Notes under the pieces: model-generated
Seen by the model: the letters and a program-made list of their open reading frames with translations, nothing else
What the model was told of the DNA's origin: nothing
The model's database searches: none
In this document: positions 2,481 through 10,867 of the stretch, one piece after another
Layout of the letters: each line of letters opens with the position of its first letter
Position numbering within the stretch: the stretch's first letter is position 1
Position numbers and translations under genes: made by a program
Virus record (IMG/VR): IMGVR_UViG_2531839662_000017
Span: 1 to 14,361 of that record
Strand: one strand, 5' to 3'
Length of the DNA stretch: 14,361 nt
From: a virus
Taxonomy: Duplodnaviria > Heunggongvirae > Uroviricota > Caudoviricetes

Positions 2481-2483
2481 TGC

Positions 2484-3605
2484 CTAGTGAATTTTGCCTC
2501 TAAGAGTTCGGTAAGATTGTAGTGAAACAACATCACCACTTCCTGGCAGTTCATGAACCGCAGGAAGATCATCTCCTACTAACTCATAAAAAATGTCCAC
2601 TTCTATATCCATTTCATCAGCTATACGCTGTGGGTCGTATCCTAACTCTTCAAATAAAAACGATAAAGCCCGACGGAATAACTCAGGACGCTCATGAGGG
2701 ATTAGATAATCTTCTTTTTCATCAATAGCTTCCCCTTTCCGTTTCAACCCCATAAATGCAGTTCTGTACTGCTCATCAGTCAAAAGTCCTAATTGATGAG
2801 CCCTGTAAACAATGGCAGCCTTACTTACTTTCCATGTCAACTTAAATTGGCTTAGTCCCTGCCAATTTATCCTCCCCCCCACAGGTCTTGGAAAATATTT
2901 CGCCATCGACGTTCTGGGAAGCAACAGAGCAGAGGCAAAACGGTTTGCCTGGGATTCAGTTAATCTATCCCCAGTAGAAATTCCTTCATGAAGAATCAAA
3001 TGGGCAACCTCATGAGCAATATCAAAGCGTTGCCTACAAGGTGAATTTTTAGCTGTATTTCGAACAATAAAAGGCCTTCGTAGAGGAACAGACAGTGCAT
3101 CTACTTCATCCGAAACGGAGTCAAATGAAGTAACAAACGCCCCAAGTTTCTCGGCAAGGCGAGTCATATTTTCAATTGGGCCAAAGCCTAAGCCCCACTC
3201 AATACGACATTTTTCTGCCGCTCGCTCGATATCTTCTTGTGTATGGACACGAAATTCAGGAAATCGAACAGGTGACAAATTAAGGTTATCTTCAAATACA
3301 TCAATAAAACGACGATAAAACTCAGCCTTAGCGAGTGTTGATAGCTTCGTTGACATCCTTGTCGAGGCGCGTTTACGAAAATGTACAATCTCTTCATTAA
3401 CAGGAGAATGTTCCTGCCCTTCGAAAAAGGCGGGCTTCACGCGCAAAACCTCGGCTAATTTATTTATAAGCTCTGGGGATGGAGTAGCTGAACCAGACTC
3501 CAGTCGCTGTACATACTGGCGTGTTTTTTCAACCTTCTCAGCAACCTGCTCCAGAGATAGCTCGTGATACAGACGAGCAAGTCTTAAATTAGTACCGTTA
3601 AACAC
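2484..3605 (-). CDS. Fusion protein: N-terminal XRE-family HTH plus ImmA/IrrE-type (COG2856) zinc metallopeptidase
   Basis: 373 aa, GTG start preceded by GGGTGA. N-terminal Cro/C1-type HTH (LSLEQVAEKVEKTRQYVQRLESG). HEVAH (HExxH) zinc-binding motif at residues 198-202, encoded at 3000-3014. Second gene of a two-gene operon, 10-nt gap after the upstream ORF. Confidence 0.85.
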   Translation of the reverse strand: MFNGTNLRLARLYHELSLEQVAEKVEKTRQYVQRLESGSATPSPELINKLAEVLRVKPAFFEGQEHSPVNEEIVHFRKRASTRMSTKLSTLAKAEFYRRFIDVFEDNLNLSPVRFPEFRVHTQEDIERAAEKCRIEWGLGFGPIENMTRLAEKLGAFVTSFDSVSDEVDALSVPLRRPFIVRNTAKNSPCRQRFDIAHEVAHLILHEGISTGDRLTESQANRFASALLLPRTSMAKYFPRPVGGRINWQGLSQFKLTWKVSKAAIVYRAHQLGLLTDEQYRTAFMGLKRKGEAIDEKEDYLIPHERPELFRRALSFLFEELGYDPQRIADEMDIEVDIFYELVGDDLPAVHELPGSGDVVSLQSYRTLRGKIH

Positions 3606-3615
3606 ATTTCACCCA

Positions 3616-4209
3616 CTATTTGCTATTTTGTTTCTTTTCCTTCTCAGTCTTAGACGCACTGATAGGTTCTAGTTCGATAGGTACCGGTGCTGGAGGTACA
3701 TCATCGACAGAGTTCAGCATAACAACACGGTCCGCACCATATGTCCAAGTTGACACGATCTCACCAAACACGTTATAGCCATTAAAAATGACTCTACCAC
3801 CCTCGCCTTCAAATTCAGGCTTTTCAACCACAAAGCGATGCATAGTTGGAGTAGTCTCCTCTGACTCAAAGAGTCGATCAGCATCATTTCTTTTGAAAAA
3901 ACCGCGTTTCTTGGGGTTATCTGCGTCATCAGTAAAGAAACGAATAGGGACATTCCCAATTGAAAACGTAAGATCCATGCCAGGATTAAGTAGTCTTAAC
4001 CAGTCATATGTCTTTCGTACGCACATTTGTAGCAACGCCTGCCGCTGACGCCCAAATGTACAACCACCACGAGTGTAATTATCATCATAGGGCGATGACA
4101 ATAACTCATGAGTAATATCCTGTATCCTGAGCAACTCCTCAGCTATAATGGTTAAACGCTCCTCTGTTAACTCAGGAAAGAACTCCCAAGGGAATGGATG
4201 GTTCTGCAT
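3616..4209 (-). CDS. Hypothetical protein, upstream partner of the HTH-ImmA gene
   Basis: ORF track gives 3616..4257 from a TTG. The ATG at 4207-4209 (MQNHPFPWEF...) has a GGAG Shine-Dalgarno 8 nt upstream and is preferred, giving 197 aa. I recognise no family. Codon usage is lower-GC than the phage backbone. Confidence 0.65.
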   Translation of the reverse strand: MQNHPFPWEFFPELTEERLTIIAEELLRIQDITHELLSSPYDDNYTRGGCTFGRQRQALLQMCVRKTYDWLRLLNPGMDLTFSIGNVPIRFFTDDADNPKKRGFFKRNDADRLFESEETTPTMHRFVVEKPEFEGEGGRVIFNGYNVFGEIVSTWTYGADRVVMLNSVDDVPPAPVPIELEPISASKTEKEKKQNSK

Positions 4210-4258
4210 AGACACTTCTCCGCCTAATCCGTGCAAAAAACGACTTTTGTCAACCAAG

Positions 4259-4287
4259 ATATTGGTGCATATTCATAATTTTGTCAA
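4259..4287 (-). promoter_or_regulatory. Candidate sigma70 promoter of the two-gene cassette
   Basis: Minus-strand TTGACA (4287-4282), 17-nt spacer, CAATAT (4264-4259), about 45 nt upstream of the preferred ATG. The -10 is weak. Confidence 0.3.
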
Positions 4288-4290
4288 CCA

Positions 4291-4315
4291 ATAAAAAACC
4301 CGCCGAAGCGGGTTA
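4291..4315 (-). terminator. Intrinsic terminator downstream of the hok remnant (identical copy of the 2456-2480 hairpin)
   Basis: Same ACCCGC-TTCG-GCGGGT plus T-run on the minus strand. The 23 nt at 4293-4315 are identical to 2458-2480. Confidence 0.65.
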
Positions 4316-4382
4316 AGTGCGGGTGCGTTGAGGATGCCTGACACATCAGAGGTGGCGAGGGATTTCTCCCTCGCCTGGTCTC

Positions 4383-4502
4383 TTACTCCTCAGGTTCGTA
4401 AGCTGTGAAGACAGCGACCTCCGTCTGGCCGGTTCGGATTCGTACCTCGCAGAGGTCTTTCCTCGTTATCAGTACCGCAACAATTTCGTATTCATGATTC
4501 AT
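4383..4502 (-). pseudogene. hok-family toxin remnant, 5'-truncated (HokD/RelF-like C-terminus)
   Basis: Minus-strand translation ...IVAVLITRKDLCEVRIRTGQTEVAVFTAYEPEE* matches the conserved Hok C-terminal half. Only 39 codons are in frame from an ATG (MNHEYE...), an in-frame TGA lies just upstream, and the hydrophobic N-terminal helix is missing. Homology ends where the AT-rich DNA begins (about 4480). A perfect 9-bp hairpin at 4354-4375 lies in the 3' UTR. Confidence 0.55.
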
Positions 4503-4659
4503 TTCATCTAAAACAGTTCATAAACCTAAATAAATTCAAAAAATCACAACACAAATAAATATAAATTATCTCATCCTGAAGAACGATAGGATTATTTAGA
4601 ATTAATAACAATTAATGTAACAATAATTATCAATCCAGATTATTCAAATAAAATGTCAT

Positions 4660-5706
4660 TTACCATATGGAGTTGTGAATGAACTTTAATTCATTTTTTA
4701 TTTTGTTAACAGATAAATTCACGGATGTCCTAACTCTATTCACAGTCATTGCATCTCCTGGATTTAACAACTCTAATGGTTTAGACTTAGCACTTGACAT
4801 TCTGCCACTACCCAGAAAATCATCAAGAATCACAATGTGATTATTAGGATCATCTGTTGTAAAATTACTAATATTTTGTCGAATTACCTCTCTTACAGCT
4901 TCGATGTACATTTTTGTCTGTTGATTTGGTTTATTCCTTGCTCCTGCCACTGTTGACCATCCGCAATGGGTAATAACCACCATCTGAATTTTTGGTGTAT
5001 GGCCATCAGACGGCATTATCTTTCTAAATTCTGATGTTGGTTTAGTCAGAGTATCAATAAGTAATCTTAATGAATTAATCGATTGCTGATCTGTCCTCAC
5101 TGGAACTATTAAAGCATCTGTTGCATGCCAAGATAAATGCGTCGCTCCAGAGAAAAAAGGTGATGTATCAATTAACGCTTTTGTAGTACCAGTTTCAACC
5201 ATTTCTCTGGCTATTTCTTTCTTCAGAGAAAAAAGAATTGTATCAATAACAACCTGCTGAGTAGCCCCAGAAATTGTTCTGGCTTGAGCCAGAGCATTCG
5301 CCATTTGCGTAGGTAGAAGATAAAGTTGACTATCAGATTGAATAAAATAGTTATTCTTGCCCGCAAACCAAGCATTAGTTGATGATACTAGCTTTGCAGC
5401 ACGCGTTGCAAATCCAAGCCCTGGAACAAAATAAGGCATTAAGAGGTCATTTGCAGTTGTGCTAGACGAAGATGCATAATTATTGTCAAAAAAATATGAT
5501 AAATTTCCTTGCGGGCACGTATCCACGATTAATGCGTTATCCGCCAAATATGACAGATTAAAAGTTAAAGATGTCTTACCAATGCCTCCCCGTAAATTAC
5601 ATACTGTATATTTATCATATTTCGGCAAATTAAGACTTCTTACATTACCGTCAGCAACTTCGAATTGACGCTCTATCAGAGCATTAACATTTGATTCACT
5701 AGTCAT
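4660..5706 (-). CDS. ParA/MinD/BcsQ-like P-loop ATPase (deviant Walker A), AT-rich accessory gene
   Basis: 348 aa with VCNLRGGIGKTSLTFNLSY (Walker A of KGGxGK[ST] type, with R replacing the signature K as in BcsQ) followed by IVDTCPQGNL (ParA-type D-x-PQ-N). The gene and its flanks are markedly AT-rich compared with neighbouring phage genes. Confidence 0.7.
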   Translation of the reverse strand: MTSESNVNALIERQFEVADGNVRSLNLPKYDKYTVCNLRGGIGKTSLTFNLSYLADNALIVDTCPQGNLSYFFDNNYASSSSTTANDLLMPYFVPGLGFATRAAKLVSSTNAWFAGKNNYFIQSDSQLYLLPTQMANALAQARTISGATQQVVIDTILFSLKKEIAREMVETGTTKALIDTSPFFSGATHLSWHATDALIVPVRTDQQSINSLRLLIDTLTKPTSEFRKIMPSDGHTPKIQMVVITHCGWSTVAGARNKPNQQTKMYIEAVREVIRQNISNFTTDDPNNHIVILDDFLGSGRMSSAKSKPLELLNPGDAMTVNRVRTSVNLSVNKIKNELKFIHNSIW

Positions 5707-5736
5707 ATCGCCACCATTAGTTTTACACTTTTATTG

Positions 5737-5765
5737 ATGATATGGAAAACTAACCTAGTTGTCAA
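5737..5765 (-). promoter_or_regulatory. Near-consensus sigma70 promoter for the ParA-like gene
   Basis: Minus-strand TTGACA (5765-5760), 17-nt spacer, TATCAT (5742-5737), about 30 nt upstream of the ATG at 5706. Confidence 0.5.
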
Positions 5766-5913
5766 CAATGGATTAAAAAACAAACACACAAGCGTTTATC
5801 AAAAGCACCTTGATTGGTGATACTACCGTGTCTTTCAGCCAAACAGTTCAGTATGTAAAGCGAATCCAACATCAATTAAGAACGTTTTCAGCGCTCCCCC
5901 AGTTGTCTAGATG

Positions 5914-6091
5914 TCAAACTTCATGCGCTCTCCTGTCGAAATAAACGTACTGATTAATCATGCCCAAGGACATTTCGCGTTTTACAGCGATATCACGGCG
6001 GGGAACTCCACACTGATGAAGCTTCCGCACTAGCTCAATATCGCTTTGCGGATGTTTTTTTGATTGGTTATAACCCCCCCCCTCTTAACAT
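5914..6091 (-). pseudogene. Small HTH ORF (weakly NinH-like), split by a frameshift at a G9/C9 homopolymer
   Basis: Minus strand reads ATG-MLRGGG into the G9 run and hits a stop. Removing one G gives a 58-aa ORF MLRGGGYNQSKKHPQSDIELVRKLHQCGVPRRDIAVKREMSLGMINQYVYFDRRAHEV* with an HTH-like core. The NinH resemblance is weak and from memory. Confidence 0.35.
6074..6082. repeat. C9 (minus-strand G9) homopolymer tract
   Basis: Nine consecutive C residues counted directly in the sequence, lying inside the frameshifted small ORF. Confidence 0.9.
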
Positions 6092-6192
6092 CCTATTGAT
6101 ACCCAGTTCCTGCGCTTTCGCTCTGACAGCATAACTAGAACGATCAATCAACCCTCCTATGCTTTCGACCGTCAACGCGTCTACACAATTGC

Positions 6193-6648
6193 CTAAGCGC
6201 CATGATTTCCCTCATGCACAACCTGTTCACCGAATGTCTCTCGAAAACCATTCTGGTAAAATGCCAGTACACGCTGCATAGCTTCGCTCTTCCGGCACTC
6301 GCGACAGATTATATTCAGGCGCCTATCGTAGCGACGCATTTCTCCGTCTGGTAATGACCAGATAAGGTCCGGATCAACCACAGATGGTTTCTTCAGATTT
6401 GCCCTTGAGAGTTTTTTGCGGGCGTTTTGCCAGTCCTTACGAGCCTGTTCAGACGGGAATAACCCGTAGCCAGAGTTATATACATCGCCACTGGCAACCA
6501 GCTCTCTGGCGATAACACTCATCAGATATCTTGTCGCACCAGTTTTCGCTTCCAGTTGCCGTAACGTCTCGCGCCCGCTCTGGCGTACCAGCTCAACAAC
6601 CTGCCCTTTAATTTTTTCTCGCTCTTCCTGTGTAAATACTTTTGCCAT
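6193..6648 (-). CDS. Hypothetical nin-region phage protein
   Basis: The ORF track extends to 6714, but the ATG at 6646-6648 (MAKVFTQEE...) has a GGGAGG Shine-Dalgarno and removes the overlap with the upstream gene, giving 151 aa. No family recognised. Confidence 0.55.
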   Translation of the reverse strand: MAKVFTQEEREKIKGQVVELVRQSGRETLRQLEAKTGATRYLMSVIARELVASGDVYNSGYGLFPSEQARKDWQNARKKLSRANLKKPSVVDPDLIWSLPDGEMRRYDRRLNIICRECRKSEAMQRVLAFYQNGFRETFGEQVVHEGNHGA

Positions 6649-9916: not shown

Positions 9917-9997
9917 GTTTAGTGTTTTTTTGCGAGTTTAGTGTTTAATAAACCATTAAGTCAAGTATTTGCTTGTTTAGTGATTACTAAAGATAAT
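9917..9997. promoter_or_regulatory. Right operator/promoter region: three direct repeats GTTTAGTG(T/A)T plus divergent promoters
   Basis: Repeats at 9917-9926, 9936-9945 and 9975-9984. Candidate repressor promoter TTGCTT (9969-9974), 17 nt, GATAAT (9992-9997), placing the transcript start near the ATG at 10004 (leaderless, like lambda PRM). Candidate cro-like promoter on the minus strand: TTGACT (9964-9959) with -10 TAAACT. Confidence 0.45.
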
Positions 9998-10003
9998 TAC
10001 CAC

Positions 10004-10375
10004 ATGCAAAAAAAAGAAATTCGCCGTTTACGTCTCAAGGAGTGGTTTAAAGATAAAACTCTGCCACCCAAAGAGAAGAGCTACCTATCTCAACTAATGA
10101 GTGGGAGGGCCTCGTTTGGAGAAAAGGCTGCCAGAAGAATAGAGCAAACATACGGGATGCCGGAAGGGTATCTGGATGCGGAATACGCAGAACAACCGGA
10201 AGTTTCTCCACCACATGCAGGGTTAACGTCTAATCAACTGGAATTATTGCAGATTTTTTCAGCCTTCCCTGAGGATGAGCAACGCCAGATAATCAGCGAG
10301 TTAAAGCAGAAAAAAGAATCAATGGAAGATCTCATAGCGAGATGGATTGCGGCGCAAAAATGCCGCCGCGCCTGA
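10004..10375 (+). CDS. paaR: CI-like prophage repressor (PaaR-like HTH regulator), no S24 peptidase domain
   Basis: ATG at 10004 preferred over the GTG at 9941, which would read through the operator repeats. 123 aa with HTH KEKSYLSQLMSGRASFGEKAARRIEQ. First gene of a three-gene operon with the ParE-family toxin-antitoxin pair. Confidence 0.65.
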   Translation: MQKKEIRRLRLKEWFKDKTLPPKEKSYLSQLMSGRASFGEKAARRIEQTYGMPEGYLDAEYAEQPEVSPPHAGLTSNQLELLQIFSAFPEDEQRQIISELKQKKESMEDLIARWIAAQKCRRA

Positions 10376-10395: not shown

Positions 10396-10587
10396 ATGAA
10401 TAGAGCCCTTTCACCAATGGTTTCTGAATTTGAAACCATTGAACAAGAAAACAGTTACAACGAATGGCTGCGTGCGAAAGTAGCAACGAGCCTTGCAGAT
10501 CCGCGCCCAGCAATTCCCCATGACGAAGTTGAGCGCAGAATGGCAGAACGCTTTGCTAAAATGCGCAAGGAACGGAGCAAGCAGTAA
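10396..10587 (+). CDS. paaA: Small antitoxin partnered with ParE toxin (PaaA-like)
   Basis: 63 aa (MNRALSPMVSEFETIEQ...) with a GGAGG Shine-Dalgarno. Stop at 10585-10587 lies 1 nt before the toxin ATG. I recall this as the PaaA antitoxin of the paaR-paaA-parE systems in O157:H7 prophages. Confidence 0.65.
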   Translation: MNRALSPMVSEFETIEQENSYNEWLRAKVATSLADPRPAIPHDEVERRMAERFAKMRKERSKQ

Positions 10588-10588
10588 A

Positions 10589-10867
10589 ATGTTACCCGTG
10601 TTATGGCTTGAAAGCGCAGATACCGACCTAGATGATATAACTAGCTATATTGCTCGTTTCGACATAGATGCGGCTGAACGCTTATGGCAGCGATTAAGGG
10701 GTTGTGTGCTGCCGTTATCCGAACATCCGTATTTATACCCACCAAGCGACAGAGTACCTGGCTTGCGTGAGATTGTAGCCCACCCTAACTATATAATTCT
10801 ATACCGCGTAACAACATCAAGCGTTGAAGTAGTAAACGTGATCCACGCAAGACGCCAGTTTCCCTAA
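10589..10867 (+). CDS. parE: ParE/RelE-family toxin
   Basis: 92 aa with a ParE-like C-terminus (HPNYIILYRV...VEVVNVIHARRQFP), translationally coupled to the antitoxin. Confidence 0.8.
   Translation: MLPVLWLESADTDLDDITSYIARFDIDAAERLWQRLRGCVLPLSEHPYLYPPSDRVPGLREIVAHPNYIILYRVTTSSVEVVNVIHARRQFP

Follow-up and report, generated by a model that had tools for sequence, protein, structure and literature searches.

A 5'-truncated hok gene beside a ParA-family gene in a lambdoid prophage: a probable chimera of two hok alleles at the edge of a block shared between Salmonella and Escherichia coli

Introduction

What does a truncated hok gene at the border of an AT-rich island reveal about the history of the prophage that carries it? 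The window, by which we mean the whole stretch of 14,361 nt that was analysed (IMG/VR record IMGVR_UViG_2531839662_000017), contains a minus-strand ORF of 39 codons (4383..4502) that reads MNHEYEIVAVLITRKDLCEVRIRTGQTEVAVFTAYEPEE. A sequence-only reading had taken this ORF for the dead 3' half of a hok toxin gene, left behind when a ParA-like island replaced the relB-relE-hokD locus known from Qin-type prophages, and had regarded it as evidence of accessory-gene turnover at this site. Here, we ask which parts of hok are retained, which locus was lost and whether the cut was made in this prophage. The coordinates of the features discussed are collected in Table 1.

Table 1. Features of the hok remnant and its surroundings (window coordinates).
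Feature	Position	Strand	Basis
hok coding remnant (HokD codons 19-51 and stop codon)	4383..4484	-	tblastn, Pfam, span of PGAP pseudogene
Six non-hok codons (MNHEYE), source of the ATG of the ORF; part of the AT-rich spacer	4485..4502	-	
In-frame TGA stop codon, 5 codons upstream of the ATG	4518..4520	-	translation
5' edge of the remnant, codons I-V-A-V-L-I, 4 differences to E. coli hokD	4467..4484	-	alignments
62-nt hok core, identical in all alleles examined; putative crossover site	4407..4468	-	alignments, identity profile
Resident hokD-type 3' part: last 8 codons including stop (TAYEPEE), 3' UTR, terminator	4293..4406	-	
9-bp perfect hairpin of the hok 3' UTR, GGCGAGGGA-GAAA-UCCCUCGCC	4354..4375	-	fold, allele comparison
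hok intrinsic terminator, AACCCGC-TTCG-GCGGGTT and T-run	4293..4314	-	terminator scan
RosmerTA cassette: RmrT 3616-4257, RmrA 2484-3605	2481..4292	-	PADLOC RmrT 7e-93, RmrA 4e-201
Spacer, 175 nt, 21.7% GC, between parA stop codon and hok remnant	4485..4659	-	
ParA/MinD-fold ATPase gene, 348 aa, island cargo	4660..5706	-	Pfam AAA_31 8e-10; predicted structure pLDDT 85.6
Sigma-70 promoter-like site, TTGACA-17-TATCAT, 11/12 matches	5737..5765	-	~30 nt upstream of parA
Phage D6 orf90-like gene (HTH protein), split into two frames at C9 (6074-6082)	5914..6200	-	
Block 100% identical to Salmonella enterica prophages, from the hok core to inside DUF977	4407..6336	-	

The retained part of hok

The ORF is composed of six unrelated residues (MNHEYE) followed by residues 19-51 of HokD. 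Residues 7-35 of the ORF match positions 14-42 of the 42-position Pfam profile HOK_GEF (PF01848; E=2.8e-16), and residues 19-51 of K-12 HokD align to 4484..4386 of the window (tblastn, E=1.7e-17); this homology is far beyond chance. The C-terminal, periplasmic domain of Hok is present including its conserved Cys, and TRKDLCEVRIRTGQTEVAVFTAYEPEE is identical to HokD residues 25-51. At the nucleotide level, matches to hokD in ~4,700 of 5,426 complete E. coli genomes begin at 4250 or 4294, continue with 92-98% identity up to 4477-4484 and end there. The retained hok DNA therefore amounts to 192 nt (4293-4484) and comprises codons 19-51, the stop codon, the 3' UTR and the terminator. Its GC content is 0.557 vs 0.217 in the adjoining 175-nt spacer. 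The intact C-terminal half of a Hok toxin, asserted by the sequence-only reading, is thus borne out, and so is the replacement of the N-terminal helix by AT-rich sequence behind an in-frame stop codon. The MNHEYE codons show no homology to any hok allele in the alignments, and no Shine-Dalgarno motif is found in the sequence upstream of the ATG, TTTAGGTTTATGAACTGTTTTAGATGAA. Further upstream, a hydrophobic stretch in the same frame (IFICVVIF) was considered as a Hok N-terminus and rejected: two stop codons separate it from the ORF, it is not collinear with Hok and it lacks nucleotide homology to hok, which identifies it as a by-product of AT-rich codons.

The 5' edge of the remnant (4467..4484) is a variant that is linked to the island and identical in Salmonella. 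Of its four differences to E. coli hokD, two (the GCG and GT- codons) are also present in L025, a full-length allele from Salmonella, and the other two (GTT and ATA) are absent from every full-length allele examined. The exact edge 29-mer, ATTGTTGCGGTACTGATAACGAGGAAAGA, has no match among species-representative genomes (one per species), and among complete E. coli genomes there is no better full-length match to the edge variants. We conclude that the four mismatches at 4467-4484 most plausibly represent variation of the donor allele. Since GTT, ATA and the 29-mer are missing from full-length alleles, the actual truncation point could lie a few bases 3' of 4484.

Lost parts and toxin function

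A complete hokD-type locus, as found in RosmerTA-bearing ETEC (L003), measures ~415 nt between its terminator and the 5' end of its leader. Lost from the window are the promoter, the leader with tac, ucb, mok and the Sok target, the gene for the Sok antisense RNA, the hok Shine-Dalgarno sequence, the start codon with its translation-coupling mok frame, and residues 1-18; everything 5' of codon 19 is unrelated DNA of the spacer. The Rfam sok model (RF01794) yields 118.6 bits in L003 and 103.9 bits in another complete locus (L002); in the window, it is absent even at E<=1, and short-word blastn found no L003-type leader there. The ORF also falls short of the ~50 aa and the N-terminal hydrophobic transmembrane helix that characterise Hok. 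MNHEYE is polar and unrelated to Hok, and the best 19-aa Kyte-Doolittle mean drops from 3.07 in HokD to 0.62 in the ORF, suggesting that no membrane helix is left.

Mutagenesis data indicate that toxicity requires each of three elements, namely the promoter, translation of mok up to the hok Shine-Dalgarno sequence and an intact hok CDS (PMC9841398). Because promoter, mok with the leader and an intact CDS are all gone, the remnant is very probably inert both as a toxin and as a toxin-antitoxin system, and neither toxicity nor post-segregational killing is predicted. On this point, the sequence-only reading of a dead, 5'-truncated hok is well supported. In a survey of Hok diversity, CDSs of <40 aa were treated as degenerated and accounted for ~5.1% of unique CDSs (10.1101/2025.08.07.668861).

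The 3' UTR and terminator

The 9-bp perfect 3' hairpin and the terminator are intact, as had been noted from the letters of the sequence. The hairpin arms (4354-4362 and 4367-4375, with a GAAA loop on the RNA) pair in the minimum-free-energy fold, and the allele found in Salmonella and E. coli N51 shows two compensatory pair changes (4358/4371 and 4360/4369). The stable 3' stem-loop (fbi region) and the intrinsic terminator barely differ from their counterparts in hokD loci, and all lineages diverge directly past the T-run of the terminator at 4293. The fold of the remnant RNA is far more stable than that of shuffled sequence (z=-4.2), and in a scan for terminators, the interval from the parA stop codon (4660) to the hok terminator (4314) contained no terminator-like site. 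Because of the strong fold and the lack of another terminator in this interval, the remnant RNA probably forms the 3' end of the parA transcript and supplies its sole terminator.

Two matches to the Rfam family isrK (31.2 and 20.6 bits, at 4293-4374 and 2458-2561 on the minus strand) remain below the gathering score of 50 and sit on two copies of the hok-type terminator. A true isrK match (80 bits) occurs near the Q gene in L002. Small RNA genes of the isrK or rsmX type at 4293-4380 were rejected, as the scores are below the gathering thresholds (31 vs 50 and 25 vs 56 bits, respectively) and the matches are explained by the shapes of the hairpin and the terminator.

The ParA island

The AT-rich segment upstream of the remnant (4485-5913) measures 1,429 nt and has a GC content of 0.348 vs 0.48-0.49 in the flanks. 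Its cargo gene encodes a protein with the ParA/Soj fold and the deviant Walker A motif of the ParA/MinD group, in which the signature Lys is replaced by an invariant Arg (NLRGGIGKT). In a Foldseek search with the predicted structure, the best matches are McdA, Soj and ParA with a target-normalised TM score of ~0.7 and E ~1e-8. Weak PADLOC matches to PRTase_III-A and ShosT, together with an LDDFLGSGR motif, had suggested a phosphoribosyltransferase-like C-terminus; this assignment was dropped because the predicted structure matches ParA/Soj/McdA over its whole length. The protein belongs to a strongly conserved orphan family (62-65% identity) distributed from Enterobacteriaceae to Desulfovibrio, Burkholderia and Magnetococcales, with the invariant motifs NLRGGIGKTSL (Arg for the Walker A Lys), DTSPFFSG, PVRTDQQS, THCGW and LDDFLGSGR. 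Genes of this family are solitary, stand often beside toxin-antitoxin genes or at the edge of integrative conjugative elements (ICEs) and lack a ParB partner. No adjacent gene for a ParB or centromere partner was found in the window, in Aeromonas plasmids or in the Burkholderia and Desulfovibrio contexts, and in Enterobacter only an unannotated 143-aa ORF lies 500 nt downstream of the parA copy.

This Enterobacter protein (96% aa identity) is encoded by the first gene of an ICE, at the ICE border. DNA homology to the ICE is limited to 4659-5765, that is, to promoter and CDS, and ends at the parA stop codon; the promoter-like site falls inside this common segment. For the spacer, no match was found in E. 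coli genomes, phages and plasmids beyond the carriers of ParA and the truncated hok (Δhok). A transposon or site-specific insertion of the island was considered and rejected, as terminal inverted repeats, a target duplication and a flanking transposase or integrase are missing. Upstream of parA, the tract that splits the orf90-like gene (6074-6082) is C9 in the window and in the Salmonella carriers and C7 in O6:H16 ETEC (L001); neither length is in frame, whereas a C8 tract would be. The gene could be phase-variable or decaying.

The lost locus

The K-12 Qin prophage carries relB-relE-hokD, as the sequence-only reading stated, and 1,162 E. coli genomes share this form; the form with a complete hokD/sok leader is found in 3,909 genomes. 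Which of the two preceded the remnant was assessed with chimeric queries that join the window flank (3900-4477) either to the K-12 continuation (rest of hokD and relE) or to the L003 continuation (rest of hokD and leader). Window flank, hokD and relE occur together in 0 genomes, and window flank, hokD and sok leader occur together in 8. Neither relB or relE nor sok-leader sequence is present in the window, where tblastn with RelB and RelE gave only noise (E>2), and relB/relE do not stand immediately upstream of the hok remnant. This absence of residual relBE had already been noted by eye. Because of the count of 8 vs 0 genomes and the missing trace of RelB/RelE, the lost locus was most probably a complete hokD/sok system (type I) and not relBE-hokD.

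A predicted RosmerTA anti-phage defence pair directly follows the remnant on its downstream side and occupies a cassette of 1.8 kb; the system is described in PMC10440598. On both sides, the cassette is flanked by hok-terminator sequence, TAACCCGCTTCGGCGGGTTTTTT, in the form of a perfect 23-nt direct repeat (4293-4315 and 2458-2480). In the E. coli N51 prophage, which has no RosmerTA cassette, the hok terminator is joined directly to the sequence that follows the second repeat. Given these terminator repeats on the downstream side and a crossover in the hok core on the upstream side (see below), both edges of the remnant appear to be module junctions.

A junction shared with Salmonella

A protein search with a 44-aa in-frame extension of the ORF led to a 39-aa Salmonella protein, P0121, which reads MNHEYEIVAVLITRKDLCEVRIRTGQTEVAVF-VDYVSEK: its first 32 residues are identical to the ORF and are followed by a different Hok C-terminus. 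P0121 is encoded in at least five Salmonella lambdoid prophage contexts (L017-L021) with the arrangement DUF1627, DUF977, ParA, a 157-nt spacer and Δhok. Downstream of Δhok, these prophages carry a 59-aa ORF and a Fic-domain gene, not RosmerTA. Identity to the window is 100% throughout 4407-6336 and drops to 87-97% beyond the right end of this block. On the left, the two part at 4406, from where the window follows the E. coli hokD allele and Salmonella an allele that has a GT insertion and the compensated hairpin. The 3' part of the window remnant (4293..4406) matches hokD of the complete loci linked to RosmerTA and differs from the Salmonella remnant, 16 of the listed differences falling within 4339-4406. 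E. coli N51 and DH5alpha have full-length hok genes with this Salmonella-type 3' allele.

The distribution of the junction is broad. An identical 451-nt junction is present in 14 complete E. coli genomes, from human O6:H16-type ETEC and from porcine ETEC, and 15 Salmonella contigs carry the identical junction as well. The window is 100% identical to strain UMNF18. Within E. coli, the ParA-Δhok module occurs in at least two prophage backgrounds, as the window and L001 diverge beyond ~6313/6657.

Since Salmonella has the same junction together with another hok 3' allele and another downstream module, we conclude that the truncation junction 4484/4485 probably moves together with the ParA cargo and predates the copy found in E. 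coli. The remnant in E. coli is best described as chimeric: its 5' edge would come from the donor allele and its 3' end from a resident hokD. As judged from the alignments, the left crossover would lie inside the 62-nt core (4407-4468) and the right one in DUF977 near 6313-6337, where the window and the O6:H16 prophage L001 also start to differ. The allele switch at 4406 supports the view that the conserved core of the remnant served as a substrate for homologous recombination. With regard to the proposed insertion boundary, the remnant does border the AT-rich ParA segment; the recent exchange, however, has its limit at 4406/4407 inside the remnant and not at 4484/4485.

Immediately past the Δhok terminator of L017-L021 (8330-9013), the 59-aa ORF and the 161-aa Fic-domain protein possibly form a FicT/FicA-like toxin-antitoxin pair. 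PADLOC returned no match for this pair or for the upstream cargo of L003.

Proposed history and alternative explanations

We consider it likely that an old truncation associated with ParA was followed by exchange across genera and gave rise to a chimeric remnant. The setting is the cargo slot in the nin region of a lambdoid prophage. In an old illegitimate event, AT-rich DNA from downstream of a ParA-family gene would have become fused to hok at codon 19, so that hok lost its promoter and tac/mok/Sok leader, its start codon and residues 1-18, which make up most of the membrane helix. The unit of ParA, spacer and Δhok would then have moved between Salmonella and E. coli lambdoid prophages by homologous recombination. 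In the lineage of the window, the left crossover would have taken place in the 62-nt core shared with a resident complete hokD/sok linked to RosmerTA, and the right crossover in the DUF977 gene at ~6313-6337. This exchange would have deleted the resident Sok gene and the 5' half of hok. Transcripts of parA would start at 5765-5737 and end at the hok terminator. Both the order and the direction of these events are to be read in this conditional sense.

The sequence-only reading had the AT-rich ParA island insert into, or replace, relB-relE-hokD in this very prophage, leaving a dead 3' half of hokD. The K-12 arrangement, shared by 1,162 genomes, and the 97.3% identity of the remnant to K-12 hokD over 4294-4477 speak for this model. 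It is nonetheless largely refuted and very unlikely to be right: the flank is found with hokD/sok and never with relE-hokD, relB and relE have left no trace in the window, K-12 differs downstream too (rem instead of RosmerTA), and Salmonella has the same junction, spacer and parA between other flanks, which places the cut outside this prophage. The broader claim that the remnant records turnover of cargo in a prophage slot survives this correction. That the junction is an artefact of assembly or sequencing, i.e., a chimeric join, has a negligible probability; only the abrupt change in GC content would hint at it, and it is refuted by the identical junction in 15 Salmonella contigs and in 14 complete E. 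coli genomes that were assembled independently. As for the allele switch at 4406, gene conversion by another hok copy within the genome could have produced such a patch, yet a simple crossover is the more parsimonious explanation in view of the different downstream flanks.

The exchange model leaves room for a role of the remnant after truncation, and two such roles can be weighed. The 39-aa ORF might encode a functional short Hok variant or small protein, either toxic or dominant-negative (anti-Hok), expressed by read-through from parA. The ORF is intact and conserved in the E. coli genomes and Salmonella contigs that share the junction, it keeps the Hok C-terminal domain with the conserved Cys, and P0121 is called 'Hok family toxin' in some sources. 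We regard a functional peptide as extremely improbable: the membrane helix is gone according to the hydropathy values, Shine-Dalgarno sequence, mok frame and leader are missing, and the C-termini have been swapped freely (TAYEPEE vs VDYVSEK), so that no constraint on the peptide as a unit is evident. Moreover, recent spread explains the conservation of the ORF, as the flanking non-coding spacer is likewise 100% identical, and the survey mentioned above counts CDSs of this length as degenerated. Alternatively, the remnant may have been kept by selection as 3' UTR and terminator of parA, which would make it a sequence in new use and not a neutral relic. No other terminator-like site precedes the hok terminator downstream of parA, the fold is much stronger than in shuffled sequence, the unit is inherited intact in two genera, and the 3' stem-loop of hok mRNA protects against 3'-5' exonucleases (PMC9841398). 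Against selection, the parA homologue of the Enterobacter ICE is not followed by hok sequence, which shows that ParA can do without hok; 100% identity reflects recency and says nothing on constraint; and the covariation in the hairpin arose in full-length hok alleles, not in remnants. Selection on the 3' UTR is therefore a tentative and somewhat doubtful proposal, which is compatible with the exchange model and not an alternative to it.

Relation to known systems

The K-12 Qin hokD gene (relF) belongs to the same hok allele group and has the same 3' UTR and terminator. It is also decayed, as its homology to complete hokD/sok reaches only 14 nt beyond the ATG on the 5' side and the Rfam sok model does not match. 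While the whole 51-codon CDS is kept in Qin, codons 1-18 are gone here, and the neighbours differ: relBE upstream and rem downstream in K-12, ParA upstream and RosmerTA downstream in the window. The textbook relBE-hokD is thus itself a 5'-truncated hok, cut upstream of the ATG (L004, 5276-5289) rather than at codon 19. The complete hokD/sok loci of RosmerTA-bearing ETEC prophages (L003; for example, in strains 504239 and TW11681) share the RosmerTA flank and the hok 3' part at 99.4-99.5% identity and occupy the same slot between the replication genes and Q. They differ from the window in having the full CDS and the sok/mok leader, and in their upstream cargo (two hypothetical genes, DUF4752, DUF4406). 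The Salmonella ParA-Δhok loci resemble the window in junction, spacer, parA, the orf90-like gene and the C9 tract, and differ in the VDYVSEK-encoding 3' allele with its GT insertion and compensated hairpin and in the downstream 59-aa ORF and Fic gene.

In the literature of Hendrix, Juhala and Clark, lambdoid phages are said to carry 'morons' and to exchange modules in a mosaic manner at conserved linker sequences. The ParA cassette resembles a moron in being a foreign AT-rich gene of divergent GC content with its own promoter-like site, placed between the DUF977/replication genes and the RusA-Q module, and in having putative crossovers in short conserved sequences. Unlike morons, the cassette has no terminator of its own and would use that of the dead hok, and the 'linker' is a remnant of a toxin gene. 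The sharing across genera and the crossover footprint fit standard lambdoid mosaicism. A more general proposal, which we put forward as speculative and rather unlikely, is that hok loci, intact or dead, act as recombination linkers that swap cargo and defence modules across genera, and that the dead hok has been reused as terminator and 3' UTR of parA. If hok did act as a linker, the invariant core and the terminator would let phages swap ParA on one side and RosmerTA, Fic or other modules on the other. Should this be general, hok sequences could be used as landmarks for mapping the turnover of cargo and defence genes in enterobacterial prophages.

Decay from the 5' side of hok recurs, as other independent forms with a replaced N-terminus exist: P0123 (47 aa), P0131 (46 aa, 76 contigs) and P0207 (partial). 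P0123, P0131, P0122 and P0207 are HokD variants in which the N-terminus was independently replaced or internal residues were deleted, an example being MRGILRRVICLTVIVTALVTRK... (46 aa, 76 contigs). Compared with degenerated hok genes in general, the remnant in the window has a defined partner (ParA) and a documented distribution across genera.

The remnant is a pseudogene of a known family that RefSeq already flags, and one among many decayed hok loci. At the identical locus of the 14 E. coli genomes, the RefSeq/PGAP label reads "Hok/Gef family protein, incomplete, missing N-terminus", and the PGAP pseudogene B4O06_RS17170 in L001 is the equivalent of 4383-4484. The present analysis adds that a complete hok/sok, not relBE-hokD, was most probably lost and that Salmonella and ETEC prophages have ParA-Δhok in common with 100% identity. 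In annotation, 39-aa proteins that bear the name "Hok family toxin", P0121 among them, should count as products of pseudogenes. Elsewhere in the window, adjoining a 144-aa ORF (9941-10375) without a Pfam match, the immunity region contains an ORF for a ParE-family toxin (10493-10867, plus strand; Pfam 4.8e-16).
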